Source: Candidatus Micrarchaeota archaeon (GTDB lineage Archaea > Micrarchaeota > Micrarchaeia > Norongarragalinales > SBBD01). Taken from it: a DNA stretch of 18,389 nt. The notes below the pieces were generated by a model. The model was not told the DNA's origin. It did not search any database and saw nothing but the letters and a program-made list of their open reading frames with translations. The stretch is from the NCBI GenBank assembly GCA_038046605.1, contig JBBSVW010000037.1:1-18389 (forward strand), read 5' to 3'. Positions 3,001-17,000 of the stretch are shown in pieces. The translations under genes were made by a program, and so were the position numbers. Position 1 is the first letter of the stretch, and every line of letters begins with the position of its first letter.

Positions 3001-3146
3001 CTATTCCTACGCCAACGCCCACTCCGACGGTTTCCTCCACACCCACCCCTACAGCGACCTTTGCGCCCTCACCAATGCCCTCAATCAGTGTTACACCAAC
3101 ACCTTCGCCCACCAAAAAGCCCAAGTCGGTGGCCGGTATTAATTAA
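3..3146 (+). CDS. Rhs/YD-repeat protein (probably 5' partial) with inserted CBM-like domain, dockerin, cohesin-like domain and Pro/Thr linker; lacks the Rhs core
   Basis: Many YD repeats (TYTYDSLGRI, YEYDDLNRL, YTYDKLNRL, FDYDPENRL). An LKNGDFE...QNVKLEPNTVYTLKIW CBM4/9-like insert lies at ~624-1175, a duplicated dockerin motif GDPNGDG.ADILD / DVDASGAVDVLD at ~2290-2490, a YGLQFAITFD cohesin-like strand after that, and PT repeats at the end. The frame is open from the window edge. Confidence 0.9.
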   Translation: MIDTGLYARVDAYYDELGRNYKSVQVDLSDTSPGRTLNKDIKAITEFDNAGRPYKGYKPVKINDALSLYTQTAYLNDPLSRPSVITNPDGTTIESKFGIELNADPQILGEPFAKVKDERGYWKKSISNQWGSTVNVKEASTDSPGDSYTNNNIFTYDEKDNLQTITDAESHTTTYTYDSLGRIKAFNHPDIGIINYKYDDLGNLIEKGPVEMLKNGDFEGGSKDWGSQDWTSETVGCRTGNRCFKATHGNWGASQNVKLEPNTVYTLKIWEKDANFLSGPAFALVETAYKYPDPNGASSSTNSWIGYLRSYLDTQCVNGALENGWQERICTFNPTTIIQGLSAPFNTPLSDPDDPRLNVNIYLLVDSSCPAGQEETCKREYNLVDGISLTGSSIKYEYDDLNRLTKVNYPGAWGDVTYSYDIPCANGNGRICSVSDDSGTTLFDYDLRGRVISVTKTLTDQISSAPVSYLTQYSYTENDAIKTITYPDSQGTVTYKYNNFGQIAGVEDGSTTKLASFQYNPASTIDTIKFGTDLSGNNPKVTTEYEYWSRDNLKSIDTYRLGSPANTLYRRSYKYDNGLNLLTTWDALAPETGTKKSEYTYDKLNRLETNPISETSKSFAFTYDKAGNRFSETVTGAQSYTKTYGYDYATGSHSQKLNTVQVSAASTTQSSSLNYDEHGNQIKKSCASNEAGCISASFDYDPENRLTYAYIPGTKLTEIYTYDYTGLRVRKEIRDSKGTTAQVLHYIYDSLGNVILENDFKGCSCPNAGDPNGDGIIADILDAVSVVNVAFRGVAAKFDPYCPYGREDVDASGAVDVLDVVKTVNVAFRNFASGSQFNFNPCSTTMGASSISNGNGALSMSVASAPQTTSATLPVTYSSTEDVYGLQFAITFDKAKYAITPGLSSKFSALTLVSSDQPYGKLIGIYSRDAMIPAGSDALLILNVQALTGTVDPTELAIEQQVLANSLGQLIPIANALGPTGPTPTPQPSQTPTPTPTATPIPTPTPTPTVSSTPTPTATFAPSPMPSISVTPTPSPTKKPKSVAGIN
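2934..3113 (+). repeat. Low-complexity Pro/Thr linker coding repeat
   Basis: Encodes GPTGPTPTPQPSQTPTPTPTATPIPTPTPTPT... Confidence 0.85.
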
Positions 3147-3178
3147 CGGCTTCCGTTTTATTTCCGCAAGCGGTTTTC

Positions 3179-4624
3179 ATGAAGAAGAAGAAGAAGTGGT
3201 CCCTAAAGGATACGAAAATAGTATTTTCCATCATTTTTTTGATCATTGCGCTTTCCATCGCTTTTTATGCCGGAAAGCTTCCGATCGGGAGGGCTTTTGG
3301 GATTTTTGTAGGCATCCCCATTGCGGAAACCATCAATGAGGCCGGTTCCGCAGGCACATCCATAGCCGCTCCTTCCCAAACTCCAACCTATGCAGCAACC
3401 GACCAACCTCAACCCCAACAAATCTTTTCAACAACCAGCACTGCAATTTCCTCCACGCCAGATTTAAGCTCTTTCACCAAAACCTCCAAAGCCAATATCT
3501 TTGCCGGCTCAAGGCAGATCGCGGAAAAAACCAAAATCGGCCCGCAACCAACCATTTTGAAATATGCGCACAGGGATAATTTGGGCAGCATTGCAGCCTA
3601 CACGGATGAAGCCGGGATCCTTTCAGGAAATATGATTTCCTTCGATTCATTTGGCCAATCCGATGAACCCTCCTCCAAATTCACAGGTAAAATCCGCGAT
3701 GGCACCGGCCTGTATTATTTTGGCGCAAGGTTCTATGACCCCCAAATTGGAAGGTTTTCCTCTGCAGATTCAATGGCTGGCAATGCAATAAGGCCGCAAT
3801 CCCTCAATAGGTTTACCTACACATTGAACAACCCGCTGAAATACGTTGATCCTTCCGGGCGCAGTGAACGAATCCCTTTTGGGGCAATGGAAGGCGATTT
3901 GCCCACAAATTCCCCCCTACGGAATCAGGTTTTAGGCGGAACTCCAGGCACAGTCAATTCCCCATGGGTTGCCCTGGCTGGCGCAATTCACGGCATTACG
4001 ATGCCAATAAGTTTGGCTAGGGGTACCTTAGGCCCCTCATCGCTGGCTGAAGAGGAAGACTCCGAATCATTTGCAGGCGGTGCAATCCTTGGCGTCTTTG
4101 CAACAGGAGCAGCCATGCGCATGGGTTTGAAAATGATCCCAAAATCATTGAATGCGCTTTTGGAAGGAGCAAAGCCTTTGGCGGAGCAAGGGTTGCAGGG
4201 AACCGTTTACCTAAAAAATGGCGAAATTATCAAAGTCAGGCAAGGCAGCGGCGCGCTCACCGAAGCGCAATACCAGGCAGCGGCAGCGCAGGTAGGTGCC
4301 GCTCCGCAGGTCCTTGAAGCAGGAGCCACCCAAGGAGGAAGTTACCTTCGGATGCCTTACGAAGGCAATTCGTGGCTTGGCCATTGGAGGCCCCTAACTC
4401 AGGATGAATTTGCCGACGCTACAAATAAACTTGGTGCACTGTACCGTGCAGGCATCAGCCATGGCGACGTTAGCCCACAAAATATGATTATCACCCCTAG
4501 TGGGAGGATAAAATATATAGATTTTGGGTTTTCAAAAGGAGCGTCGCTGGAATCATATGGGGATGATCTAAGGGAGTTGGAATTCTGGCAAGGGCATATG
4601 GAAAAATACGGGCATAATAAATGA
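3179..4624 (+). CDS. Membrane-anchored Rhs-associated core protein with C-terminal protein-kinase-like toxin domain
   Basis: Basic N-terminus plus hydrophobic helix and S/T-rich linker, then YAHRDNLGS, FTGK..DGTGLYYFGARFYDPQIGRF, and NNPLKYVDPSG (ends 3859). The C-terminus has kinase motifs G.QGTVY..K, HGDVSPQN and IDFG. Confidence 0.9.
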   Translation: MKKKKKWSLKDTKIVFSIIFLIIALSIAFYAGKLPIGRAFGIFVGIPIAETINEAGSAGTSIAAPSQTPTYAATDQPQPQQIFSTTSTAISSTPDLSSFTKTSKANIFAGSRQIAEKTKIGPQPTILKYAHRDNLGSIAAYTDEAGILSGNMISFDSFGQSDEPSSKFTGKIRDGTGLYYFGARFYDPQIGRFSSADSMAGNAIRPQSLNRFTYTLNNPLKYVDPSGRSERIPFGAMEGDLPTNSPLRNQVLGGTPGTVNSPWVALAGAIHGITMPISLARGTLGPSSLAEEEDSESFAGGAILGVFATGAAMRMGLKMIPKSLNALLEGAKPLAEQGLQGTVYLKNGEIIKVRQGSGALTEAQYQAAAAQVGAAPQVLEAGATQGGSYLRMPYEGNSWLGHWRPLTQDEFADATNKLGALYRAGISHGDVSPQNMIITPSGRIKYIDFGFSKGASLESYGDDLRELEFWQGHMEKYGHNK

Positions 4625-6426: not shown

Positions 6427-6666
6427 ATGCAAATTCAATTTTCAAGGCACCTAATTCAGAAGTTGGAATTTTCCCGCAGGAATATTACCGGAAACATGGT
6501 TCTCGAAACAATTGAATATTATGATTTAATCAAGCCCGCCGGATCAGCTAACCGCTTGCTCTACCTTAAATACTATGAAAAATTAGATAAGTTTTTATTG
6601 GTCGTCGTTGAAAACAATATGTGCGCAATCACGGCTTATCTCATAAGCAAAGGTCGAGTATTATGA
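6427..6666 (+). CDS. DUF4258-like putative toxin (RelE/BrnT-like fold)
   Basis: I.FSRH...K...R.I at the N-terminus and LLVVVE....ITAY at the C-terminus; ATGA-coupled to a DUF2283 gene, a known pairing. Confidence 0.7.
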   Translation: MQIQFSRHLIQKLEFSRRNITGNMVLETIEYYDLIKPAGSANRLLYLKYYEKLDKFLLVVVENNMCAITAYLISKGRVL

Positions 6667-6923
6667 AAGGAATGCGGTATTTTCCAGGGGATGATGTGCT
6701 TTACATCAAGGTCAAAAACGGCAAATATAGCGAGAGCAACCCCATTTCTGAAAACCTCATTCTCGACATAGATAAGGATGGAAACACCCTAGGTATCGAA
6801 ATTCTCCATGCTTCAAAAGAACTAGCCAAAGCGAAGTTGCCAGTCAAAACAGCAGCCAAAAAGAAGGGGTTTGGAATGTTTCCAGATGTCCCTAAATTTA
6901 CTCATGATCCAGATATGTTTTGA
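6663..6923 (+). CDS. DUF2283 family protein (putative antitoxin)
   Basis: Y...DDVLYI...ES..ISENLILDIDKDG..LGIEIL signature; ATG 6663 overlaps the upstream TGA. Confidence 0.85.
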   Translation: MKGMRYFPGDDVLYIKVKNGKYSESNPISENLILDIDKDGNTLGIEILHASKELAKAKLPVKTAAKKKGFGMFPDVPKFTHDPDMF

Positions 6924-6945
6924 TTTTGCTACGGGATGATGATCT

Positions 6946-7116
6946 ATGGTCGGGCTGAAAAGAAAGAAAATATTATCTAAAAGACTAACTCCCGTTGAAC
7001 AAAAGCTGCTCGATAAATTTAGGAGAATTGCCGATGAAAAAGGAATTACAGATCAGAAATTAATCGAGATTTGCAGGGAAGTCGGAAGGCAAGTCTATCA
7101 GGAAGAATACGGATAA
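6946..7116 (+). CDS. 56-aa protein resembling a VapB-type antitoxin C-terminal region (not in ORF track)
   Basis: Manual translation MVGLKRKKILSKRLTPVEQKLLDKFRRIADEKGITDQKLIEICREVGRQVYQEEYG, with a GATGA RBS upstream. Confidence 0.6.
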   Translation: MVGLKRKKILSKRLTPVEQKLLDKFRRIADEKGITDQKLIEICREVGRQVYQEEYG

Positions 7117-7129
7117 GGCTGTGAAAATA

Positions 7130-7234
7130 ATGCAAACAAAGATTTCATCAGTTTTGGAAGAGATAGTTGGGATCCTGCCAAAGGGTGCGCCACTCTTTGT
7201 TCGGGATAAGCGCGATTTTGATAGAAATATTTAA
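7130..7234 (+). CDS. 34-aa micro-ORF, antitoxin-tail-like (not in ORF track)
   Basis: Manual translation MQTKISSVLEEIVGILPKGAPLFVRDKRDFDRNI, with GTGA upstream; co-oriented with the preceding operon. Confidence 0.4.
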   Translation: MQTKISSVLEEIVGILPKGAPLFVRDKRDFDRNI

Positions 7235-7296
7235 GGATAAATAATCTATTTTGATATAAAATAGCTAAATTTTTCTCCTTAGCCTCACGTCGTCCC

Positions 7297-7527
7297 CTAA
7301 AGTTTGCCAAAACAATTGTCGCATAAACCCGCATGCCAATCCTTGTTATGGGCAGATATAGTAGCGGCGCAATTTTTGCAGAAGTAATTCATATCCTCGT
7401 CATGCCCCTTATGGAAAGTCTTTAGCCTCAGTTTCAAGTCCTTGTCTCCCAGCGTTTCGGAAAAATCTTTTTCAGCCCATATGCTTTTTTCGCCGGTTTG
7501 TACTTTGGCCGATTTCCCCTTTTTCAT
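7297..7527 (-). CDS. Small putative zinc-binding protein
   Basis: CKNC...H...H..LCDNC motif; GGAGTGA RBS before ATG 7527. Confidence 0.7.
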   Translation of the reverse strand: MKKGKSAKVQTGEKSIWAEKDFSETLGDKDLKLRLKTFHKGHDEDMNYFCKNCAATISAHNKDWHAGLCDNCFGKL

Positions 7528-7679
7528 TAAAATCACTCCATTTCCTCAAGAACTTCATTTTTCCTTCTTTTTTCCGGTTTCCTTGGTGAGGATTGGAATG
7601 CTACCACATCCACCTTAATTCCATTAAGGAAACATTAATATTAAACAATATGGATAGGCTATATGCAAAAGGTTATCCC

Positions 7680-7889
7680 ATGACTAAAAAAGATGCTGAT
7701 TTTGAATTCTACCTGAAAACAGACCTCAGTAAATACGAAGGGCAATACGTCGCAATTGCAGGGGGTAGGGTAATTGCACATGGGGATAATGCATCGGAGG
7801 TAATGAATAGGGCCAGCCGGCTGCACCCCAACCTAATACCGACCCTTGCTAAACTCCCAAAGGATGAAATTTTCATCTATTTGAACTGA
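7680..7889 (+). CDS. DUF5678 family protein
   Basis: LSKYEGQYVAIAGGRVIAHG.NASEV...A...HP pattern; likely start is ATG 7680. Confidence 0.8.
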   Translation: MTKKDADFEFYLKTDLSKYEGQYVAIAGGRVIAHGDNASEVMNRASRLHPNLIPTLAKLPKDEIFIYLN

Positions 7890-7948
7890 AAAGCGTTAAA
7901 TGAAAGGTATAAAATCATCCCTTGCGGAATATGATGAATGGTGGTAAT

Positions 7949-8179
7949 ATGTCTCAAAAACTCTCGGCTATAATCACGAAGGGCGAAATCGCCTATGTTG
8001 CCCTATGCCCGGAATTAGACGTTGTCAGCCAGGGTAAAAACAGGGCCGATGCGCTTGCAAACTTAAAGGAAGCCGTCGAATTATACCTGGAAGATGAAGA
8101 TGTCCAAAAAATGCTTGCAAAAAATCCTATACGGAAGGCCGTGGTGGCAGAAATATCAGTTAAACGCAAGCTGAGTTGA
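7949..8179 (+). CDS. hicB: HicB-family antitoxin (short form)
   Basis: YVALCPELDVVSQGK...ALANLKEAVELYLE; GGTGG RBS before ATG 7949. Confidence 0.92.
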   Translation: MSQKLSAIITKGEIAYVALCPELDVVSQGKNRADALANLKEAVELYLEDEDVQKMLAKNPIRKAVVAEISVKRKLS

Positions 8180-8183
8180 TTTC

Positions 8184-8417
8184 GTGCCAAAATTGCCTAT
8201 AATTTCAGGCGTTGAACTGATTAAGGCTCTTTCAAAAATCGGTTTTGCGCAAGTCCGGCAAAAAGGGAGCCATGTGACTGTAAAGAAGCATGCTGAAGGT
8301 AAACTCCTTATTGCTACAATTCCATTGCATCCGGCCCTCGATACCGGCACCCTGCTCGGCATATTGCGCAAACTTCAAATATCAAGGGAAGATTTCCTGA
8401 AACTTTTGGCAAAATGA
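8184..8417 (+). CDS. hicA: HicA-family toxin
   Basis: MPKLP.ISG.ELIKAL.K.GF...RQKGSHV...IPLH..L..GTL..IL. Confidence 0.93.
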   Translation: MPKLPIISGVELIKALSKIGFAQVRQKGSHVTVKKHAEGKLLIATIPLHPALDTGTLLGILRKLQISREDFLKLLAK

Positions 8418-8738: not shown

Positions 8739-8795
8739 CCATTCACCTTTTTGTGTTTTGAAGTTTTTTCCCCTTCCTTTTTTCCGGTGTCCTTG

Positions 8796-8813
8796 GTTCG
8801 GATGGGCATAATC
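8796..8813. repeat. Degenerate cassette-junction site
   Basis: gttcggatgggcataatc is 15/18 identical to the 9439 site and overlaps the stop of 8812..9372. Confidence 0.6.
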
Positions 8814-9372
8814 ATGGATTTTTTCTGAAATAAGTAAACTTAGGGTAAGTGGTTAATTTATTTATCAAGCCGGCGGCAGAAAGGGAATTCCGGAATTCAT
8901 ATGGATTGTGCAATCTCTGGGTAAATTCTCCATCTATTGTTTTTATTTTAATATAATATCTTTTTGTAATATCAAAAGTTATCTGGATTTCCAGAATTTC
9001 TTTTTTTTCGAATTCTTTTTGTTTGGCGCCCTCAAAAGCGAGGAAAATACAATAAACAAATGGGATCCAGTCAAAATACGGCAATTTATCGCTCAAATTT
9101 GAATTGCTCATCCTTATGGCGCCAGGTACAACCCTAACTGGCCTCCACATGAAAAGCTCTGCGATTATTGTCAATAGCGTTCCCAATCCAAACCAAACAA
9201 ATAGAAAATATGTGACATAAATTGGATAAGCTGCAAGAATAGCCATAAATACAAACCATAGGAGAAAAAGAATTCCAATCGAAATGAATCCGTTGATTAA
9301 TACATTAATCCGAGTATCTTTTGTTGATACGTATAATGGATGATCCTCCCAAATTAATTCACCTTTAACCAT
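8812..9372 (-). CDS. Hypothetical membrane protein (2 TM plus possible PH-like beta domain)
   Basis: Two hydrophobic helices followed by a beta-rich region; GGTGA RBS. Confidence 0.75.
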   Translation of the reverse strand: MVKGELIWEDHPLYVSTKDTRINVLINGFISIGILFLLWFVFMAILAAYPIYVTYFLFVWFGLGTLLTIIAELFMWRPVRVVPGAIRMSNSNLSDKLPYFDWIPFVYCIFLAFEGAKQKEFEKKEILEIQITFDITKRYYIKIKTIDGEFTQRLHNPYEFRNSLSAAGLINKLTTYPKFTYFRKNP

Positions 9373-9390
9373 TTTCTCACCATTTATTTA

Positions 9391-9408
9391 GTTCTTACTT
9401 GAATGAAC
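9391..9408. repeat. Cassette-junction palindrome
   Basis: gttcttacttgaatgaac. Confidence 0.9.
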
Positions 9409-9438
9409 TTCATTTTACTTTGTTTTTCAACTTTTTTG

Positions 9439-9456
9439 GTTCGGATGGGGATGAAC
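9439..9456. repeat. Cassette-junction palindrome (variant centre)
   Basis: gttcggatggggatgaac. Confidence 0.8.
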
Positions 9457-9497
9457 GACACCCCAAAGGGGAAACTACGTTTCCCCTACCACGTGTC
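9457..9497. other. Imperfect hairpin (REP-like or terminator-like)
   Basis: GACAC-N5-AGGGGAAAC-TAC-GTTTCCCCT-N5-GTGTC. Confidence 0.6.
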
Positions 9498-9513
9498 GCC
9501 GCCTACCCTTTCC

Positions 9514-9924
9514 TCATATTCTGAAAACGCCCATGTAATGAATCCAAACGTTTTGTTGACCACCACTCAAACTATATGGAAAAGTTGAGCCAACGCCAGG
9601 ATGATTTTGCCAAGATTCTAAATTTAGCGCTTGAATTTGACGAGAATTGGAATAAGGTTGAGTGATATTAGGAAGAATTTGATTTTGCTGATAATAAAAT
9701 ATGCTTCCTGCTTCAACTCTCAAATCTCTTCCTGAATGACTAATTATTTCGTCAAATTCACCTGTCTTTTTCATTTGCGAGAGTTTAGTCTCTAAATTAT
9801 AAAATGAATTGCAAGATAAACATTGAGACTCCGTGTTTGTTCCACCATTGCATAGGCTAACTCCCACATGACCAACAGTTATTGGTAAATTAGAGCCGCA
9901 TTCTGCGCATATTCCAATTGCCAT
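9514..9924 (-). CDS. Hypothetical protein with N-terminal zinc-ribbon-like motif
   Basis: CAEC...CLSC; GGTGA RBS before ATG 9924. Confidence 0.65.
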   Translation of the reverse strand: MAIGICAECGSNLPITVGHVGVSLCNGGTNTESQCLSCNSFYNLETKLSQMKKTGEFDEIISHSGRDLRVEAGSIFYYQQNQILPNITQPYSNSRQIQALNLESWQNHPGVGSTFPYSLSGGQQNVWIHYMGVFRI

Positions 9925-9960
9925 TTTTCTCACCAAACACTTTTTCCCAATAGCCGGATA

Positions 9961-10386
9961 TTAATCTTCCTTGGTTCTTACTTGGATGAACTTGTTTTTT
10001 GAAATGTACTCTTTGATCAAACCAATTCCCATCCCAAAATAAACATCGTTGGTCGCATTTGAAAAATTGCCGCTATCTTGAAAATAGCCGTATATTGCAA
10101 ATGCTAGAACCAAAAAGCCGGAAATTAGATAAATTTGATCCATTTCTTTCTCATTTGGACTGTACCTTTTTAGCCTAAAAGCCAAATAGAACTTAAAAAC
10201 AGAGATAGCTGGACCTACAATCAAAGTGGTCAATATGATACGCGCTAGGGTGCCAATTGGTCCAAGAAAGTACATTCCAACAGCAAAGAAAAGGGCTATC
10301 CCAAGAAGTATGAGTTTTGCAAGTTCATTTGCTTCATTATAATCCTTCATTTGTTTGAAATCAATTTTTTCTACCATAAACATCAT
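9961..10386 (-). CDS. Hypothetical multi-pass membrane protein
   Basis: Three to four hydrophobic segments; the C-terminal FIQVRT is encoded by the 9974 repeat. Confidence 0.75.
   Translation of the reverse strand: MMFMVEKIDFKQMKDYNEANELAKLILLGIALFFAVGMYFLGPIGTLARIILTTLIVGPAISVFKFYLAFRLKRYSPNEKEMDQIYLISGFLVLAFAIYGYFQDSGNFSNATNDVYFGMGIGLIKEYISKNKFIQVRTKED
9974..9991. repeat. Cassette-junction palindrome inside a gene 3' end
   Basis: gttcttacttggatgaac, 17/18 identical to the 9391 site. Confidence 0.85.
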
Positions 10387-10434
10387 ACTAATAGCGTAAA
10401 TATTAACTTTCCTCCGGATTCGCCATCATCCCCC

Positions 10435-10462
10435 TTTTTGTTCATCCAAATATGAACAAAAA
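10435..10462. repeat. Cassette-junction palindrome, perfect 11-6-11, opposite orientation
   Basis: TTTTTGTTCAT-CCAAAT-ATGAACAAAAA (core 10440-10457). Confidence 0.9.
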
Positions 10463-10549
10463 TGTGCAAATCTTTTTTCCAATTTTGCACCTTAAAGATA
10501 TCCTAAGTAAAGGTTAAAATACTCGGATTGAGAGAATAATTCGTTAACT

Positions 10550-11068
10550 ATGAAGAATATCTATTTTTTGCTTCTTTTATCAATTCTATTGTTTGGATGT
10601 GTTGTTAAAACAGCATCGGATAAAGGAGAAAGGCAGCTTCAGGATGAAAGTTATCAAGAATACAAAAAATGCAAGGAAGTTAATGGTGAAGCATCAAAAA
10701 GAGGGGTAGACCTGATCGAAATTCCGCAGTATTCCTATCACTATGATATATGTGATTTTGAAAGGTCTAAAGTCGTATGTGTTGGTCATGGAGGTGACGA
10801 AAATCATTGCTACTGGAACCAAGCTTTGATATATCAAATCCTCCGTGAGGATGCAGTCAATTTATGCGAAAAGGCAGGTGATTCAAAGTCACAATGCTTA
10901 ATCGATGTCGAAACATTACAGGATATGAAGGAAGAATGTCAAAAATTGTCATCAGAAGAGGCACTTAAATGCCTAAAACTTGGTGGAACTCTTCACAAAG
11001 AGCAAGCAAAACTAAGGGAAAATGTTTTTTCGGGAACCAATTTAACTGAGGTCTATATTGTTGGTTAA
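10550..11068 (+). CDS. Cys-rich putative lipoprotein
   Basis: MKNIYFLLLLSILLFGC lipobox-type signal and multiple spaced cysteines. Confidence 0.8.
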   Translation: MKNIYFLLLLSILLFGCVVKTASDKGERQLQDESYQEYKKCKEVNGEASKRGVDLIEIPQYSYHYDICDFERSKVVCVGHGGDENHCYWNQALIYQILREDAVNLCEKAGDSKSQCLIDVETLQDMKEECQKLSSEEALKCLKLGGTLHKEQAKLRENVFSGTNLTEVYIVG

Positions 11069-11306
11069 TTGTTCATTAATATTATTACAATATCATCTGA
11101 CTAAAATTAAGTAGGTAATTAACTCCATAACGCTATAATCACCGGTTCCTTTCCCCTATTTCTCATTCCTTTGGCCTAAAGTTCTGGCTTAGGCACACCC
11201 GAGCCACCCCAGATTCTCCCACCATACCGGAATGATAGAACCATGACCGGAAAATGGGTTTATGATGATTTTTTTGGTTATAGTATGTTGAAACGCCGGA
11301 ATGTGG

Positions 11307-11621
11307 TTATAGAGAGATGTTATTTTTTATGCAATAATCAATAACCGCAATAATCAATACCAAAATAAAAAAAACGATTCCTATGTAAAAAAATATCTTA
11401 GCAAATTTTACCGCTTCGTCCCCTTCCTTTAAACCAAAATTGTACCAACGAGTACCAAAGAATCGTTTTCTCTTGATGCCAATCAGTCCAAAAACAATGT
11501 ACCAACCCGTAAATAAGAATCCCCATAAGAACGGATCCATGAAACTATGGAGAAAGATGAGGATTAATTGAACTCCAAGGAATACTACTGCAAGAAATAT
11601 GTTTTCAATATTTTTTTCCAT
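11307..11621 (-). CDS. Small 3-TM membrane protein (paralog of 13185..13508)
   Basis: Hydrophobic helices and an EGDEA motif. The GTG called at 11630 lies inside the GGTGG RBS, so the likely start is ATG 11621. Confidence 0.75.
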   Translation of the reverse strand: MEKNIENIFLAVVFLGVQLILIFLHSFMDPFLWGFLFTGWYIVFGLIGIKRKRFFGTRWYNFGLKEGDEAVKFAKIFFYIGIVFFILVLIIAVIDYCIKNNISL

Positions 11622-11639
11622 TTCCCCCACCTTTTTTCA

Positions 11640-11657
11640 GTTCATACTTGTGTGAAC
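11640..11657. repeat. Cassette-junction palindrome
   Basis: gttcatacttgtgtgaac, preceded on + by ccaccttttttca. Confidence 0.95.
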
Positions 11658-11659
11658 AA

Positions 11660-11899
11660 TTATTTTCTTAACAATTTGATGAAATCATCCCGTTCAATTC
11701 CAGCCTGCTTTAAAATATCATGAAGAAGGCCGGGTTTCAGGTCTGCATTGCCATGAAGGGGAACCACTGTAACTAGAACCTCAATAACCGTTCTTTTCTT
11801 AAGCCGGACATGGCTGCCTTTCTGGGCGACAATTTCAAACCCTTGCTTCTGTAAGAACTTGACCATTTCCTTTCCGGAAATGACTGGCAGTTTAGGCAT
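11660..11899 (-). CDS. hicA: HicA-family toxin
   Basis: MPKLPVISGKEMVKFL.K.GF....QKGSHV...VPLH...LKPG.L..ILKQAG. Confidence 0.95.
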   Translation of the reverse strand: MPKLPVISGKEMVKFLQKQGFEIVAQKGSHVRLKKRTVIEVLVTVVPLHGNADLKPGLLHDILKQAGIERDDFIKLLRK

Positions 11900-11908
11900 T
11901 AGATCCCC

Positions 11909-12160
11909 TCAATTGCCGTTCTTTTTGATTTTGGAGGGAACAACAATAGTTGTGACAATTGGATGAGAAAATTTCCTTCCCTTGAGCATTTTTTGCACAT
12001 CTTCATCTTCCAAATAAAGTTCTACGGCCTCCTTAAGATTAGTGAGAGCAGATTCGACGCTTTTACCCTGGCTTGCAACTCCTAACTCGGGGCAATGGGC
12101 AACATACCAATCATCTTCCTTTTCCAGAACCGCGGAAAATTCTTCCATTAATTTTACCAT
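11909..12160 (-). CDS. hicB: HicB-family antitoxin (short form)
   Basis: WYVAHCPELGVASQGKSVESALTNLKEAVELYLE. Confidence 0.93.
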   Translation of the reverse strand: MVKLMEEFSAVLEKEDDWYVAHCPELGVASQGKSVESALTNLKEAVELYLEDEDVQKMLKGRKFSHPIVTTIVVPSKIKKNGN

Positions 12161-12237
12161 AAAACCACCGTTTTAGCTATATTCATTTTAGAGAATAATA
12201 AACTATCTTTTTCCTAGATTTTCCCCACCTTTTTTTA

Positions 12238-12255
12238 GTTCATATGAGTGTGAAC
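12238..12255. repeat. Cassette-junction palindrome
   Basis: gttcatatgagtgtgaac; arms extend to TTTAGTTCA/TGAACTAAA and overlap the TAG stop by 1 nt. Confidence 0.95.
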
Positions 12256-12632
12256 TAAACTGCACCACTTTCTCGAAGGCTTTCAAGATGCGCTTTTGTT
12301 GCTTGAAGCGGTTTCACCCAAATTTCCCGGAATTGATCTTCCGGCATGCCCCTCAAGGTTGCAAATATAGCAACTGGTACATAGCTTCGTCTTTCACCTC
12401 CATTCAGAGCGCGATGGGCGGCTTTCATTAATCTGGATGTAAATCGGACAGAGGCGATTAAATCCTCAACAGATGAAGCCGATCGGAGGGTATGTAGTTC
12501 AGGTTGCCCCCTAAATCTTCTTGTGTTGGAAGCCCAAATGCTATAGGTCAAATGCAATCTTCTCTCGTGTTCCTCGCCAAGATGCGATTTTATTTTCTGA
12601 AAAAAATCACTTTCGGGCAAATCATCTGTCAT
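12255..12632 (-). CDS. Hypothetical helical protein (paralog of 14617..14973)
   Basis: Fills the space between two sites exactly; SV.DLI...M...HR..N motif. Confidence 0.75.
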   Translation of the reverse strand: MTDDLPESDFFQKIKSHLGEEHERRLHLTYSIWASNTRRFRGQPELHTLRSASSVEDLIASVRFTSRLMKAAHRALNGGERRSYVPVAIFATLRGMPEDQFREIWVKPLQATKAHLESLRESGAV

Positions 12633-12650
12633 TTTCTCATCTTTATTTTA

Positions 12651-12668
12651 GTTCATACAAGCCTGAAC
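12651..12668. repeat. Cassette-junction palindrome
   Basis: gttcatacaagcctgaac. Confidence 0.92.
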
Positions 12669-12670
12669 CA

Positions 12671-13144
12671 TTACGCAACCATCCGCATCTCAAAATGATG
12701 CTCCCTAAACCCAAATTTGCAGTAAAGGGCGAAAGCTTTCCTATTCTTGGTATGGATCGTGATGCTTAAGAAATGAAGTTTCCGGCTTTTTGCCCACTCT
12801 CGGGCTTTCTTAAGCAATTTGGTGCCGATCCCCATGTTTCTGTAGCCTTCCGCAACAAACATCTCATATACGCAGGCATCCCGATCGTAAAAATATATCG
12901 GGAAATGGGATTCCTCCCTAACTATAATGTGGCCAATAACCTTTCCTCCATCTTCAGCGATAAATACGGCACTTTTTGGGCCTTTAATCATTTTCCGGAT
13001 GGTATTCCGATAAATTTCAACATAATTTGATTTGAAGCGGTAAATCTGGGGGTCGTAGAGCTTGAGAAATTTGGTTAGGGATAGCCCTTCAGCAAGAATT
13101 GCGGAAATATCTTTATGGAAGGCTTTCCGGATTGCTATTTTCGT
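12671..13144 (-). CDS. GNAT-family N-acetyltransferase (apparent ACG start)
   Basis: FIAEDGGKVIG, MFVAEGYRNMGIGTKLL and N..A..LY.KFGF motifs. The frame stays open 51 codons upstream of ATG 12991, to ACG-AAA-ATA-GCA-ATC-CGG-AAA-GCC (KIAIRKA). Confidence 0.88.
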   Translation of the reverse strand, partial: TKIAIRKAFHKDISAILAEGLSLTKFLKLYDPQIYRFKSNYVEIYRNTIRKMIKGPKSAVFIAEDGGKVIGHIIVREESHFPIYFYDRDACVYEMFVAEGYRNMGIGTKLLKKAREWAKSRKLHFLSITIHTKNRKAFALYCKFGFREHHFEMRMVA

Positions 13145-13164
13145 ACTTTAGACACCTTTTTTCA

Positions 13165-13182
13165 GTTCATACTCGTGTGAAC
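13165..13182. repeat. Cassette-junction palindrome
   Basis: gttcatactcgtgtgaac. Confidence 0.95.
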
Positions 13183-13184
13183 CA

Positions 13185-13508
13185 TTAATTCTTCCCATCA
13201 ATTCCTAGAAAGAAAAATACCAAGCTAATAACCAAAAATAAAGCGGAAACCTTTGCAAACGTTATAGCTAGTCTTTGTGCCTCCTCCCCCTCAAATAGTT
13301 TGAATGCACCGATTCTAATCCAACCTGCAAATTCAATCATCTTTCGAGTGTGATAACAAATAATTGCGAATATCAACCACCAGACCATTGTTGCTGAAAA
13401 ATAAGCGGAATTCCGCATGTGGAGGACACCTCCCCCATAAATTATGATTGCAAATGAGATGCCGAAGAATAAAACATAGTATATTATCATTTCCGTAATT
13501 TTATTCAT
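13185..13508 (-). CDS. Small 3-TM membrane protein (paralog of 11307..11621)
   Basis: Hydrophobic helices and an EGEEA motif; ATG 13508 follows a GGTGG RBS. Confidence 0.75.
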   Translation of the reverse strand: MNKITEMIIYYVLFFGISFAIIIYGGGVLHMRNSAYFSATMVWWLIFAIICYHTRKMIEFAGWIRIGAFKLFEGEEAQRLAITFAKVSALFLVISLVFFFLGIDGKN

Positions 13509-13526
13509 TTCCTCCACCTTTTTTCA

Positions 13527-13544
13527 GTTCATACTCTACTGAAC
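13527..13544. repeat. Cassette-junction palindrome
   Basis: gttcatactctactgaac. Confidence 0.93.
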
Positions 13545-13549
13545 CACAA

Positions 13550-14020
13550 TCAATGATGGTGGTGCCCATGCCCATCCTCCAGCTTCCTAGAGGTCCATCT
13601 GGCTATCCAGCCTTGGAAACCGGCATTTTCGATGACTTTGTATTTGAGAGCTCCTTTTTCCTCATCTGTGCCAATTGCAATGATGTTCCCGTGCCTTATC
13701 TGCATCCCTTGGGTGTTTGTGATCAAGGGCCAGGCAAAACTGCCATCATCCAGATGAACCCTCAAATCGCTGGCTTTTTTATCGTGGGTTATAATACGAT
13801 ATTCGCCTTTTTCACCTTTCACTATAGACAAATGGATGGGCAAAAACGTGCTCTTGGGGGTGCCAGCAGGCATATGCTGGTTCACTTCCAATGGGTCCAG
13901 CCGTATTGAAGCAGATTTATCATGCCCAATGGTGATCGGCAGCCCATCGAGGGAATACAGTGTTCCCCTATCGGGGTCCTTGAGGCTTTTTAGGAGGAAT
14001 TTTGGTTTTTCTTCTGGCAT
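13550..14020 (-). CDS. Degenerate FHA-like domain protein with His-rich tail
   Basis: G..Y.L...PITIGH....SIRL, H..I......Y.I and I.HGNII.IG match the FHA strand pattern; ends GHGHHHH. Confidence 0.65.
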   Translation of the reverse strand: MPEEKPKFLLKSLKDPDRGTLYSLDGLPITIGHDKSASIRLDPLEVNQHMPAGTPKSTFLPIHLSIVKGEKGEYRIITHDKKASDLRVHLDDGSFAWPLITNTQGMQIRHGNIIAIGTDEEKGALKYKVIENAGFQGWIARWTSRKLEDGHGHHHH

Positions 14021-14038
14021 TTTATCCACCTTTTTTTA

Positions 14039-14056
14039 GTTCATACGAGTGTGAAC
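14039..14056. repeat. Cassette-junction palindrome
   Basis: gttcatacgagtgtgaac. Confidence 0.95.
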
Positions 14057-14059
14057 CAA

Positions 14060-14302
14060 TTAATCGTAAATGCTTTGCCGTGGCCCAACCTTATGGCAAA
14101 CAATATCGTTTCCGATGATTTGATAAATAACGCGATAATTCCCAATCCGTAAGCTCCGGTACTCCTTCAGGCTGCCTTTGAGTGGTTTTCCAGTTAGTGG
14201 TTCATTTTGTAATATTGGCAATTCTTTAACAATCCGGCCAATATCCTTGGGATGGATATTTTTAAGAGTGGACTTGAATTTATTCGTTAGAACTAGTTGC
14301 AT
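14060..14302 (-). CDS. relE: RelE/ParE-family toxin
   Basis: P..GKPLKGSLKEYRSLRIGNYRVIY...VGPRQSIY. Confidence 0.93.
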   Translation of the reverse strand: MQLVLTNKFKSTLKNIHPKDIGRIVKELPILQNEPLTGKPLKGSLKEYRSLRIGNYRVIYQIIGNDIVCHKVGPRQSIYD

Positions 14303-14311
14303 GAAGAAGAC

Positions 14312-14542
14312 CTATTTGGCTTTCTTTTTTCTCGAGTTTTTAAGCTCTTTTTCAACTTCAGCCAAGGTATAAGTGCGTCCTGCATGGTAATCCGCTTTGC
14401 TTTCAGCCAAATCCTTCAGAATGTGGGGATCCGAGGTAAGAATATCGATTGTTTCTGTGAAGGATTCGAATTTGCTCTTCAATTCTGCGAGTTCTTTCCT
14501 TGTTTTATCCAATTCAAATAAAATGTGTTTGTTTTCGTACAT
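14312..14542 (-). CDS. Antitoxin of the RelE module (RelB/Phd-like C-terminus)
   Basis: ETIDIL.SDP.ILKDL.ESKAD..AGRTYTL.EV, located upstream of relE. Confidence 0.82.
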   Translation of the reverse strand: MYENKHILFELDKTRKELAELKSKFESFTETIDILTSDPHILKDLAESKADYHAGRTYTLAEVEKELKNSRKKKAK

Positions 14543-14573
14543 TTATTTCGCCTCTGTTTGTATTGTTTCCTAT

Positions 14574-14590
14574 GAATAATAGCTTTTCGC
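14574..14590 (-). promoter_or_regulatory. Putative BRE/TATA promoter of the RelBE unit
   Basis: Minus strand GCGAAAAGC-TATTATTC, ~30 nt upstream of ATG 14542. Confidence 0.5.
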
Positions 14591-14593
14591 ATT

Positions 14594-14611
14594 GTTCATA
14601 TTTACCTGAAC
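14594..14611. repeat. Cassette-junction palindrome
   Basis: gttcatatttacctgaac. Confidence 0.9.
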
Positions 14612-14616
14612 TAAAA

Positions 14617-14973
14617 TTAATCTAACACTCCCCTGGCTTTCAACCGTTTCAGGAGCTTTTTAGTTGAAAGGAGGCTAGTAATTAATTCCGCCGATTTTAT
14701 TGGTTTGCCTTTCTTTGGTCCCTTACCTTGGCCTCTTGCAATCGCGTTCATAACCCTATGGAATCCAATCATTGAACTTGTATCATGATTAAACGCTTCA
14801 ATCAGGTCATCAACGCTTTTTACACCGGTTTCAAGTTTTTTATCGACTTCGGGAGCTTGAGGGTTTTCTCTAAGGACATGATAAAGCCAAGCTCCACGTA
14901 TATTTGCTAAATGGATTTCATGATTGCCGGCTTTTTTTAGCTCTTCGACCAATCTTTCGTGTGAATAAGCCAA
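14617..14973 (-). CDS. Hypothetical helical protein (paralog of 12255..12632)
   Basis: Likely TTG start at 14973 after a GATGA RBS; SVDDLI...M...HR.MN motif. Confidence 0.7.
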   Translation of the reverse strand: MAYSHERLVEELKKAGNHEIHLANIRGAWLYHVLRENPQAPEVDKKLETGVKSVDDLIEAFNHDTSSMIGFHRVMNAIARGQGKGPKKGKPIKSAELITSLLSTKKLLKRLKARGVLD

Positions 14974-14990
14974 TTTATCATCTTTTTTCA

Positions 14991-15008
14991 GTTCATATAA
15001 ACATGAAC
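14991..15008. repeat. Cassette-junction palindrome
   Basis: gttcatataaacatgaac. Confidence 0.93.
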
Positions 15009-15010
15009 CA

Positions 15011-15382
15011 TTATTTCTCCTTAACAAAATGCACATTTGGCTTTCCCCTGAAATGCTCATCGCCCGTTAAAAAAGGCGCCTCGCTGGAGGCATATCGGTA
15101 AAGAATGGAATCCATCAGGGGCAATTTATCAGAATCGGAGAGCTTGCCAGCCATGATGCCCAATTTCAGGTCAAAATCAAGAATTAGGCTGTGCTTTTCC
15201 ATGAATTCGAAGAGCTTATCAATTTCGTAGTCCTCTAAACCGCGTCTCTTCAAGGTTCGGGAAAGTTCGGAAAAAACCAATGCAGGCGTTTTTATGATAT
15301 TTTTTTCAATCAGGTCGCGATATGCCTCGGATTTGTCAAAGTAGGCCATCCAGGCATAGGTGTCTGCAACGTAAATAGCCAT
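15011..15382 (-). CDS. vapC: PIN-domain VapC toxin
   Basis: YVADTYAW, E, L..MDSI and LTGDEHF catalytic pattern; likely start is ATG 15382. Confidence 0.92.
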   Translation of the reverse strand: MAIYVADTYAWMAYFDKSEAYRDLIEKNIIKTPALVFSELSRTLKRRGLEDYEIDKLFEFMEKHSLILDFDLKLGIMAGKLSDSDKLPLMDSILYRYASSEAPFLTGDEHFRGKPNVHFVKEK

Positions 15383-15387
15383 TTTGC

Positions 15388-15627
15388 TCACTTCTTGAAA
15401 TGTTTCCAATGCTCATTGAGTGCCAACTCATCCCCTTTGCGGTCCTCCAGCAGATCCTTTACGCTTGCCCTGCCTTTAAGTGCGCCCCACATACTCTCCT
15501 TCTTCTCCTCAAATAAATGCTTGTGGAGAAGAACATTTACTCCTCTCGATAGGTTGCCATCAAAAAGTTGCCTAACCTTATCTGCTATCATGTCGTCCAG
15601 CATCAATGTGGTTTTTATGGCTGCCAT
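15388..15627 (-). CDS. vapB: VapB-type antitoxin (ribbon-helix-helix-like)
   Basis: KTTLMLDD....K......GNLSR.VN.LL...L and SMWGALK, upstream of vapC. Confidence 0.82.
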   Translation of the reverse strand: MAAIKTTLMLDDMIADKVRQLFDGNLSRGVNVLLHKHLFEEKKESMWGALKGRASVKDLLEDRKGDELALNEHWKHFKK

Positions 15628-15660
15628 ATAGAATACACCATATAGAGTATGCCATAATCG

Positions 15661-15676
15661 TTATATAAAGCTTTTC
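15661..15676 (-). promoter_or_regulatory. BRE/TATA promoter of the VapBC unit
   Basis: Minus strand GAAAAGC-TTTATATAA, 33 nt upstream of ATG 15627. Confidence 0.75.
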
Positions 15677-15695
15677 TTTCCCCCACCTTTTTTCA

Positions 15696-15713
15696 GTTCA
15701 TACTTGTACGAAC
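15696..15713. repeat. Cassette-junction palindrome
   Basis: gttcatacttgtacgaac. Confidence 0.93.
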
Positions 15714-15719
15714 AAATAA

Positions 15720-15938
15720 TTATACTTCAATATGTGTAAATAATGCAGCCGATAACTTCCTTTCATCGACTTCTTTCCTTGCCTCCTTCTCCTCAAGATA
15801 TAATTCCACTGCCTCTTTGATGTTTGATAAGGCTTTTTCAACAGTTTTGCCCTGGGTAGTTACTCCTACTGACGGGCAATAAGCAACATATTCGTTTTGT
15901 TCCTTCTGGATAATAACTGGAAAAGTGTGTTTCTTCAT
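15720..15938 (-). CDS. hicB: Orphan HicB-family antitoxin
   Basis: FPVIIQKE..EYVAYCP.VGVTTQGKTVEKALSNIKEAVELYLE; no adjacent hicA. Confidence 0.9.
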   Translation of the reverse strand: MKKHTFPVIIQKEQNEYVAYCPSVGVTTQGKTVEKALSNIKEAVELYLEEKEARKEVDERKLSAALFTHIEV

Positions 15939-15948
15939 AAAATCACTG

Positions 15949-15966
15949 GTTCATATCGATCAGAAC
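15949..15966. repeat. Cassette-junction palindrome
   Basis: gttcatatcgatcagaac. Confidence 0.85.
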
Positions 15967-15969
15967 CAC

Positions 15970-16158
15970 TTAAATCGCCTCCGCCATATGGTGCTTCTCA
16001 ATTCTGTCTACTTGTTGGGAGGTGAAGATGAATTCATTGCATATAGGGCATTCATATGCTTTCACATTGTGCAAAGGAACGCCAGGCATGTACTCGTAAG
16101 TAGGAAAGACGATTTTCCTCGCTTCAACCTTATCCTTTTTGCAGATTATTTTACTCAT
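15970..16158 (-). CDS. YgiT/MqsA-type zinc-finger-like protein
   Basis: NVKAYECPICNEFIFT..Q..RIE; the first knuckle is CKKD; ATG 16158 overlaps the upstream TGA. Confidence 0.75.
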   Translation of the reverse strand: MSKIICKKDKVEARKIVFPTYEYMPGVPLHNVKAYECPICNEFIFTSQQVDRIEKHHMAEAI

Positions 16159-16331
16159 CGAATCTTCCGCCTCTTCCATATTTCATCATACATTTTATCA
16201 TGCTCTATTTCTGCTTTTCTATCCTCCTCCCTCATTTTTATTATGTCCTCCCCAGAAACTAGCCCTTTCAAGGAGCCAAAACCTGCATTTGAGATAATTT
16301 TTCCGCCCTTATTCTTGTTTTTGCTTTTCAT
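16155..16331 (-). CDS. Small protein resembling a stand-alone VapB C-terminal (toxin-binding) region
   Basis: GSLKGLVSGEDIIKMREEDRKAEIEH aligns without gaps to GALKGRASVKDLLEDRKGDELALNEH of 15388..15627. Confidence 0.6.
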   Translation of the reverse strand: MKSKNKNKGGKIISNAGFGSLKGLVSGEDIIKMREEDRKAEIEHDKMYDEIWKRRKIR

Positions 16332-16344
16332 ACCAATCAAAAGC

Positions 16345-16725
16345 TCATTTTACAAATTTGACATTCTTTAATCCCCTAAAGGCATCATCGCCCGTAAGGA
16401 ATTTGAGGCCCATGGATTTGGCCAAATGGTAGCCTAGAGCGTCGACGAATGATACATCTTTTTTTGTCAGTTTCCTGAGGGAAAATTTTTGCCTGCACGC
16501 TTCGATGAGTGCAGTTTTTGATGGGATAAGCGCATCTTCCATCATCATATCCTGCAATTTTTCAGCTATATCGATATTGCCATTCCTTAGTAGGACGAAA
16601 TAGGCTTCCGCAACATTCAGGTCGCATGTCACAACCTCAAATTCCTTGCCATAATATGGCATATAGCTACTGCTCCCGAAAACAAGCTCCAAGAGTGCGT
16701 ATGTGTCAAAATAATATTTCACCAA
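16345..16725 (-). CDS. vapC: PIN-domain VapC toxin
   Basis: YYFDTYAL, E, SFVDALGY and FLTGDDAF. Confidence 0.93.
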   Translation of the reverse strand: MVKYYFDTYALLELVFGSSSYMPYYGKEFEVVTCDLNVAEAYFVLLRNGNIDIAEKLQDMMMEDALIPSKTALIEACRQKFSLRKLTKKDVSFVDALGYHLAKSMGLKFLTGDDAFRGLKNVKFVK

Positions 16726-16937
16726 AAATCATCCTCCCCTCTTAGTTCATCTTTTATTTTTTGGGCGTTAAGGTCCAGATGTTTGCCGATTCCAAATAAT
16801 GACATATAGTCCTTCTTTGGCACCACCCGAAGTTTTAGCTCTTGGTTCTCCTTCAAATTAAGCTCCTTTGCTTCAGATGCAGGAAACCTGCCAAAAAATG
16901 AGCCGCCGATGCGCTTGATCTTTATGTTCACATACAT
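16719..16937 (-). CDS. vapB: AbrB/MazE-type VapB antitoxin
   Basis: KIKRIGGS....FP...AKELNLKENQEL and SLFG; overlaps the vapC start. Confidence 0.9.
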   Translation of the reverse strand: MYVNIKIKRIGGSFFGRFPASEAKELNLKENQELKLRVVPKKDYMSLFGIGKHLDLNAQKIKDELRGEDDFW

Positions 16938-16982
16938 AGGGGTACCTTGTTTAATTTATTGTTATATTTATTATACTGAATG

Positions 16983-17000
16983 TTATATATAAAGCTTTCG
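16983..17000 (-). promoter_or_regulatory. BRE/TATA promoter at the head of the minus-strand array
   Basis: Minus strand CGAAAGC-TTTATATATAA. Confidence 0.75.

Follow-up and report, generated by a model that had tools for sequence, protein, structure and literature searches.

Archaeal replication origins are typically built from origin recognition boxes (ORBs), an unwinding element and an adjacent orc1/cdc6 gene (PMC4010727, PMC3528665), and a gene of the CopG/ribbon-helix-helix (RHH) family lies beside predicted origins of Pyrobaculum (PMC4009838). Here, we analyzed an 18,389-nucleotide stretch of DNA (the window; contig C37, JBBSVW010000037.1) from a Micrarchaeota archaeon of the order Norongarragalinales (GCA_038046605.1; genome G000, 1.64 Mb, 90.7% complete), in which an 18-bp palindrome, hereafter the box (consensus GTTCWTAY-NN-RTAWGAAC), recurs between short genes. 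The comparison covered 68 genomes of the order in 11 families, all of them incomplete metagenome-assembled genomes (MAGs), and "host family" denotes the family of G000. Judging from sequence, we put the chances at about even that the boxes are protein-binding boxes at a replichore landmark shared by the order, with an origin likelier than a terminus, and that genes of the host family were added there through duplication of the junction. Box, linked RHH-like gene and strand-skew switch would together offer a concrete locus, a motif and candidate proteins for Micrarchaeota replication. The box cluster is apparently undescribed, since a literature search, with subscription journals outside its coverage, found no description of the motif or locus, nor any account of origins of replication or of sites of segregation in these Micrarchaeota.

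Like archaeal origins, the locus appears to have inverted boxes repeated about a core of non-coding DNA and, in part of the genomes, a switch in strand skew there. It differs in that cdc6 lies 57 to 320 kb away in the four genomes that carry it on the same contig (57 kb in G044, 79 in G025, 130 in G040 and 320 in G006), in the 8-2-8 layout of the box, which lacks a G-string, and in the spread of boxes between genes over up to 6.6 kb; its origin role is that of a candidate. Two Sulfolobus systems bear comparison. UBP is a non-initiator DNA-binding protein with an origin motif, ucm (PMC12141716), but ucm is 11 bp, non-palindromic and present at hundreds of genomic sites, whereas the box is palindromic and confined to one locus. 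SegAB pairs a small RHH-like protein with clustered palindromes beside its gene (SegB on S1/S2; PMC8682754); unlike there, an adjacent ParA/SegA is absent here, the RHH gene is missing in the host family and no significant sequence or fold match to SegB was obtained.

Integrons and clusters of attC sites lacking integrases, including archaeal ones (PMC9668308), resemble the host-family arrays in their mostly promoterless open reading frames (ORFs), toxin-antitoxin (TA) pairs, acetyltransferase and shuffled order, and in a site at or beside the stop codon (PMC11511950). Tandem single-ORF cassettes bounded by a site and shuffled between strains, as expected of an integron, are present. In contrast to integrons, IntI was not found here, growth of the arrays takes place to either side of a central element, and elsewhere the box occurs without cassettes. 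An attC site is a long imperfect hairpin with R''/R' boxes and extrahelical bases that runs RYYYAAC...GTTRRRY, whereas the box is 18 bp long, has GTT...AAC polarity, shows no covariation and has no Rfam match. Xer/dif sites, pdif modules and the rAID arrays of Bacteroidales likewise combine a conserved with a variable arm, a variable centre, single genes or TA pairs and a position at a replichore boundary. Xer/dif and pdif differ from the locus in that no XerA exceeded the NF040815 cut-off in any of the 68 genomes, no linked tyrosine recombinase is present and the arm sequence is unrelated; serine-recombinase sites differ in that a cognate recombinase is absent in G000 and the central dinucleotide of the box is not fixed. 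The host-family arrays show integron-like, ORF-precise turnover with no detectable integrase or XerA, and bear on how gene cassettes arise and gain translation signals.

Boxes and start module in the host-family array

The pattern GTTC-N10-GAAC occurs at 14 sites between positions 9391 and 15966 of the window (26 strand-matches, shuffle mean 0.17). A position weight matrix (PWM) recovered all 14 plus one weak match elsewhere in the 1.64-Mb genome; there is one box cluster per genome, and the genome PWM scan revealed no dispersed regulon. Several boxes are followed by what we call the module, an A-tract and a Shine-Dalgarno (SD) sequence. In the list, +n distances count from the box edge (minus strand within the window), units run from box to start position, and TATA-like elements are read from the letters alone, as are the BRE/TATA-like promoters mentioned below.

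15949-15966, minus strand: box; HicB-like gene 15938-15720 starts at +11 with SD GTGA; A6 module absent
15696-15713 (unit 15677-15713), minus strand: box with perfect TGAAAAAAGGTG module; AGA and no start at +19; TATA-like TTTATATA at 15669-15662 behind it, then VapB-like/PIN pair 15627-15011
14991-15008 (unit 14973-15008), minus strand: box with GATG module; TTG at +18; 118-aa ORF ending at 14617
14594-14611, minus strand: box, module absent; TATA-like TATTATTC at 14581-14574, then ParD-like/ParE pair 14542-14060
14039-14056 (unit 14020-14056), minus strand: box with module; ATG at +19; 156-aa ORF ending at 13550
13527-13544 (unit 13508-13544), minus strand: box with module; ATG at +19; 107-aa membrane ORF ending at 13185
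13165-13182 (unit 13144-13182), minus strand: box with module; ACG at +21; GNAT acetyltransferase ending at 12671
12651-12668 (unit 12632-12668), minus strand: box with variant module TAAAATAAAGATG; ATG at +19; 125-aa ORF ending at 12255
12238-12255 (unit 12219-12255), minus strand: box with perfect module; ATC at +19; TATA-like TTTATTAT at 12202-12195 behind it, then HicB/HicA 12160-11660
11640-11657 (unit 11621-11657), minus strand: box with module, the last before the core; ATG at +19; 104-aa membrane ORF ending at 11307
11127-11330, no strand assigned: conserved non-coding core, about 200 nt, single copy; candidate origin core
10440-10457, no strand assigned: box with arms extended to 11 bp; TATA-like TTAATATT at 10406-10399, then 141-aa ORF 10386-9961
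9974-9991, minus strand: box within the 3' end of the 141-aa ORF
9457-9508, plus strand: dispersed hairpin repeat, inserted exactly at the edge of box 9439-9456
9439-9456, plus strand (best score): box
9391-9408 (unit 9372-9408), minus strand: box with variant module TAAATAAATGGTG; ATG at +19; 186-aa membrane ORF ending at 8812

The first-pass annotation had proposed that the site carries a built-in translation start module at fixed spacing, an adaptor that renders captured promoterless ORFs translatable. All seven site-to-start distances it gave are exact (five ATG at +19, TTG 14973 at +18, ACG 13144 at +21), and its module motif fits five of those seven sites exactly, 9391 and 12651 deviating. 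The fixed-spacing module is real and copied, but a start at +18 to +21 stands behind just 7 of the 14 window sites: behind two further exact modules, at 12238 and 15696, the first ATG comes at +78 and +69, respectively, and the remaining five sites have neither module nor start in that interval. Its remark that there is no room for a promoter holds for the promoterless junctions but not for 12238 and 15696, whose modules precede BRE/TATA-like promoters, and the array is probably expressed from several internal TA promoters rather than from one read-through transcript. In line with its account of false GTG starts, the SD itself contributes the GTG at +10, which three times (11630, 13517, 14029) shares the reading frame of the ATG. 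In the comparison with the 16S anti-SD that it called for, the module's AGGTG pairs with the 16S 3' end GAUCACCUC, at genome-typical spacing. A promoter/terminator scan stayed at shuffle level with a sigma-70 model, which is ill-suited to archaea.

The 12-mer TRAAAAAAGRTG sits behind a palindrome in seven of its eight genomic copies, and the seven 18-nt leaders are 61% mutually identical against 34 ± 3% for 161 ordinary SD leaders, a level that none of 5000 random draws reached; the module is thus a copied unit. Flanks resemble each other most when they come from the same genome and the same side of the core. This likeness extends from about -12 to +21 around the palindrome and drops to background beyond, so that this unit is what is copied within genomes; the module persists even at boxes with no start codon following. 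The 19-nt spacing alone is ordinary SD geometry. Among 973 long ORFs of G000, the GGTG-to-ATG spacer measures 5-7 nt in 107 of 178 GGTG matches, and an SD at +9 to +12 with such a spacer predicts a start at +18 to +20; what matters is that the spacing is copied together with the box. Within arrays of the genus, a TRAAAAAAG-type module follows 15 of 30 sites upstream of the core vs. 0 of 18 downstream, and the box directly before the core carries the canonical module in all six arrays. Most promoterless starts across the genus fall at +17 to +21. Starts in G044 lie at +11 to +14 or within the box, and in G045 the box supplies the start of three different ORFs (ATG-AAC within the right arm, with an SD that overlaps the left one). 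Outside the host family, boxes occur in both orientations, often at 25-60 bp spacing in non-coding DNA and also inside genes, and the module is absent. The adaptor idea thus survives in part, as a copied unit with a working-type ribosome-binding site (RBS), but finds no support as the purpose of the site: the start module is a lineage-specific by-product of an order-wide box cluster that in one family is an integrase-free cassette array.

The same type of array was found in seven other host-family genomes, and the core stands in the middle of all eight arrays. Single ORFs and TA pairs occupy different array positions in sister genomes, with the box 0-8 nt past the stop codon. The distance from stop codon to box is -3 to +8 nt at 37 of the 60 sites in the host family and at 32 of the 88 elsewhere, compared with a per-gap null of 20%. 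HicBA homology between G000 and G040 ends at boxes on both sides. The GNAT gene is boxed in G000, where the box stands 2 nt past the shared stop position and the module replaces the different leader of G039, in which the gene is box-less. A LiaF-like gene has a box in G038 but none in four sister genomes; its cassette leader in G038 is that of the site-less G039 homolog, so the RBS is native there. Either capture or decay could account for these differences between boxed and box-less genes. The 118-aa ORF ending at 14617 belongs to a helical family with paralogs in sister arrays. ACG 13144 of the GNAT gene aligns with the ATG of the G039 homolog and has an in-frame stop just upstream, and it is either a non-canonical start or a fresh inactivating change.

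The hairpin repeat at 9457-9508 has 16 further BLAST matches in the genome. Its four array copies (window 9457-9508; locus L029 9726, 13120-13166 and 14314-14349) all begin exactly after the TGAAC edge, two of them between two boxes, which suggests that the repeat targets the box edge. Such starts fit a duplicative insertion route shared with array genes, without proving one. The core has repeated TATAAC/GTTATA words, and it could be an RNA or a DNA element. An Rfam scan of the window, core included, gave no match, and folding of the core alignment (plus strand only) showed little covariation, with a double change in 1 of 32 pairs. An identity as SRP RNA or RNase P RNA was rejected because both lie elsewhere in the genome.

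Distribution and chromosomal position in the order

A looser box pattern was found in 17 of 48 other order genomes sampled, vs. 2 for a control pattern; outside the order it occurred in 12 of 351 genomes, as single sites only and no more often than a reversed-pattern control. With mismatches allowed, clusters of at least two sites occur in at least 35 of the 68 genomes and 8 of the 11 families, with eight boxes within 820 bp in G064, for instance; among the matches listed, no boxes were seen in genus g16, G011 or G056. The site-plus-module pattern had no match in a viral collection, and a metagenome scan for it returned nothing beyond the window's own DNA. Over the eight families the half-sites are conserved while centre and neighbouring genes turn over. 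Among 148 sites, Watson-Crick pairing between the arms did not exceed the shuffle value for any of the five pairs of variable positions, and RNA folds of seven junctions were unremarkable (z -1.4 to +0.7); arms that vary independently and fold weakly lead us to expect a protein dimer on duplex DNA rather than an RNA stem. Each of the 16 possible central dinucleotides is represented. In 23 of 26 clusters there is a non-coding gap, 190-870 nt long but with an AT content of just 51-74%, and a search for k-mers shared by the non-coding parts of the 26 clusters returned A-tract words only. In family f8 (L070 7780-8110, L071 7950-8620), TAATGGTG-like words are repeated between two boxes, possibly a second binding motif. 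The left arm of host-family boxes has drifted.

In most other families the cluster is accompanied by a lone RHH-like gene. The encoded protein is small and basic, with one strand and two helices predicted (pLDDT 72), and its distant relatives are CopG/VapB-like. This gene lies within the cluster in 12 of 18 non-family loci compared, with a divergent form in G017 and G018, and is single-copy in 34 of 67 other genomes. Among 18 genomes with visible sites that were outside the training alignment, a box lies within about 800 nt of the gene in 12, a weak box in 1 and none in 5, co-location here resting on coordinates. A fold search returned no match at E <= 0.001 (weak RHH rows were ParD2, TraM and NikR), and NCBIfam, PDB-sequence and Atlas searches named no family. 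A FitA-like RHH gene near the G044 and G045 arrays was discarded as the linked gene, as it is unlinked in G038, G040 and G000.

Position on the chromosome was assessed from coding-bias-corrected GC skew at fourfold sites, which replaced an initial analysis of all third positions; the latter had placed G044 and G006 near maxima, where the fourfold version shows no switch. On four of seven long contigs (G040, G030, G038, G060), the skew minimum coincides with the cluster or is no more than 2 kb away; along 298 kb of G040 the curve is V-shaped, with its minimum at 91.5 kb and the cluster at 87-93 kb. Bootstrap values for a minimum within 10 kb of the cluster are 63% (G040), 85% (G030), 99% (G038) and 52% (G060). 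A (-,+) switch was found at 9 of 15 testable loci vs. 18% at random points (p about 4e-4, with kin not independent); in this two-sided strand test the window's right side rests on 40 sites. Genes on the array strand are more G-rich after the core than before it at all six family loci. With moderate confidence, we take the cluster to be a replichore boundary in many genomes. Genes of G000, G006, G040 and G030, ribosomal-protein operons included, favour the C-rich strand, which may reflect an inverted skew polarity. The winged-helix domain of host-family Cdc6 is far more diverged (E 1e-5 to 1e-10) than those of other families.

Several observations weigh against the origin explanation that we favour. 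The skew minimum is not at the cluster in G044, in G025 or in 1.1 Mb of G006 (bootstrap 0, 2 and 0% for G044, G025 and G006), being nearer cdc6 in the latter two, and two of the four cluster-associated minima lie near contig ends. The switch is reversed in G017 and missing at four loci, and 11 of 26 loci were untestable and dropped from the two-sided test for missing cells. A pooled away/toward test of 16 short loci was positive in 9 (p=0.45) and negative in f9, g15 and g6. The C-rich strand carries five of six real ribosomal-protein-like operon runs as well as most of the coding length, and were the leading strand C-rich, the landmark would be a terminus. To our knowledge, the box does not match ORB or mini-ORB spacing; an ORB cluster upstream of cdc6 was found in none of five genomes. 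The core was not detected outside the host family. The RHH-like gene is missing there, the best match being an unlinked antitoxin-like gene, and so cannot be the sole binder; genus g16 has the gene, and boxes were not seen in it.

Competing explanations of the boxes

In the explanation we favour, the palindrome would be a double-stranded box at which a chromosomal protein binds as a dimer, with GTTCWTAY as the half-site and 2 bp left free at the centre. The boxes cluster at a replichore boundary in a statistical sense and in part of the genomes, and there they most likely mark a cdc6-distal origin whose candidate core in the host family is the ~200-nt element at 11127-11330. We prefer an origin over a terminus on account of the sharp switch and the conserved core at its centre. 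Within the host family the flanks of the core form a gene-turnover hot spot, where new DNA may enter by duplication of the junction, that is, of the box and the ~18-21 nt behind it with the neighbour's A-tract and SD. Since the duplicated junction brings that SD along, the incoming ORF would inherit a working RBS, and selection would keep inserts whose start lies 5-7 nt behind the SD or which bring their own promoter, as TA pairs do. Copying of the junction together with such selection would make the 19-nt spacing real but secondary and lineage-specific, and not the conserved function of the site. It is conceivable, if rather doubtful, that this amounts to an integrase-free capture platform on an origin, in which a box-binding or nicking protein inserts gene-sized DNA by the core and duplicates box and RBS with a polarity like that of CRISPR acquisition, in a cdc6-distal class of DPANN origin; if so, the platform would trim promoterless ORFs to stop and start and render them translatable at once.

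That the boxes are instead integron- or pdif-like recombination sites, served by an unrecognized recombinase encoded elsewhere, with the core attI-like and site plus RBS an expression adaptor, we consider unlikely. The ORFs are precisely boxed and shuffled, the cargo (TA pairs with their own promoters, GNAT, ORFans) and the abutment of boxes to stops resemble integron cassettes (PMC9668308, PMC11511950), the most canonical module adjoins the core in each genus array, and self-complementary dinucleotides are under-represented at the box centre (27 of 148 sites against an expectation of about 40; AA/TT in 50). Against this, no candidate recombinase family tracks the cluster, as judged with PF00589, a custom integrase HMM, NF040815, PF00239, PF16795, PF01548 and PF07282. 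No tyrosine recombinase was found in G000 by Pfam or the custom HMM; PF00589 matches occur in 33 of 68 order genomes, are unlinked to the cluster and mostly ~400-aa integrases, and are missing from at least 10 cluster-bearing genomes. Serine recombinases or resolvases occur in 8 of 68 genomes and not in G000, IS110 in 1 of 5 and an SSV-type integrase in 0 of 5. Although the MAGs are incomplete, a housekeeping enzyme should appear in most of them. The box centres are highly variable, and in other families boxes stand 25-60 bp apart in non-coding DNA or lie within genes. Box-to-box or excision joints were not seen in four contig sets, a comparison of low power; the single opposite-strand joint, 9508 to 11655 (35-nt side, depth 2.3, likeness 85), matches the G040 arrangement and probably comes from a relative. 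A Y1 HUH transposase occurs on another G000 contig and in 5 of 11 host-family genomes; a link to the array is not shown.

A replication terminus or centromere (matS/Ter-like, or a SegB-like RHH site), with the array as a terminus-type insertion hot spot, strikes us as distinctly unlikely. The skew switch would fit a terminus if the leading strand were C-rich, genes prefer the C-rich strand in five of eight genome sets, and ribosomal-protein operons point toward the cluster in G040 and G038; yet two genomes have such operons no more than 5 kb from the cluster, a placement typical near origins, a sharp switch on a conserved non-coding core suits a fixed start over the broad zone expected of fork fusion, and XerA stays below cut-off throughout. 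The linked protein is RHH-like, as is palindrome-binding SegB (PMC8682754), which would suit a centromere, but no ParA-like gene lies within 20 kb in the three genomes with readable distances (the nearest clear ones being at 23 kb in G025 and 100 kb in G006, with a weak match at 51 kb in G040), and ParB is absent in five of five. Operators for a transcription factor such as the RHH protein, or RNA-processing hairpins acting on local genes, are very improbable. A box does overlap the point where the RHH gene starts in G013, G014 and G016, and the start codon of an AbrB-like gene lies inside one in G040 and G041, but boxes more often stand behind gene 3' ends, that of the RHH gene included, form one cluster with no dispersed regulon and persist, up to 14 of them, in the host family with no RHH gene; against hairpins stand the missing covariation and weak folds. 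Least credible, at the bottom of the scale, are neutral relics of tandem duplication and gene conversion with no binding partner: homogenised junctions within genomes and paralogs among the cargo genes speak for them, but the conservation of half-sites over eight families amid turnover of centre and neighbours, at one locus per genome, largely refutes this.

Further features of the window and arrays

Three additional features flank the array or interrupt its polarity.

16345-16999, minus strand: AbrB-like/PIN pair with BRE/TATA promoter at 16993-16986; anchors the upstream end of the array
16326-16343, minus strand: box behind the PIN gene, decayed here (PWM 2.6) but intact in three sisters of G000
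10550-11068, plus strand: 172-aa lipoprotein-like ORF, inverted relative to the array

A coupling mini-ORF, in which a stop overlaps NTG-GTT...ATG-AAC-TRA, is not claimed; NTG directly precedes about one-fifth of family sites, roughly as base frequency predicts. A purine-rich tail of ~50 nt (CCGG-A-tract-GGGG-A-tract on the array strand) marks gene ends at 7550-7599 and 8760-8809 of the window and recurs at downstream junctions of L029 and L017. It precedes boxes in G040 and G042, and an intact box is absent behind the window copies. In the oriented arrays L017 (~4719) and L014 (~18888), a half box GTTCAT is all that is left after ParE; it runs into the end of a convergent gene, perhaps through a mid-box break. 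The window is unusually dense in TA genes over its 18 kb (6427-8417 and 14060-16937), with two HicBA, a ParDE, two PIN pairs, DUF2283, DUF5678 and a solo HicB-like gene, part of them outside the boxed array. At 3-4624 on the plus strand, two adjacent RHS/YD-repeat ORFs are followed by short ORFs; the first (1047 aa) has a dockerin-like repeat and a Pro/Thr tail, and the second (481 aa) combines the RHS core motif with a kinase-like domain at its C terminus (Pfam Pkinase, E 5e-5). The region resembles a polymorphic-toxin locus that has been split, here in a DPANN archaeon.

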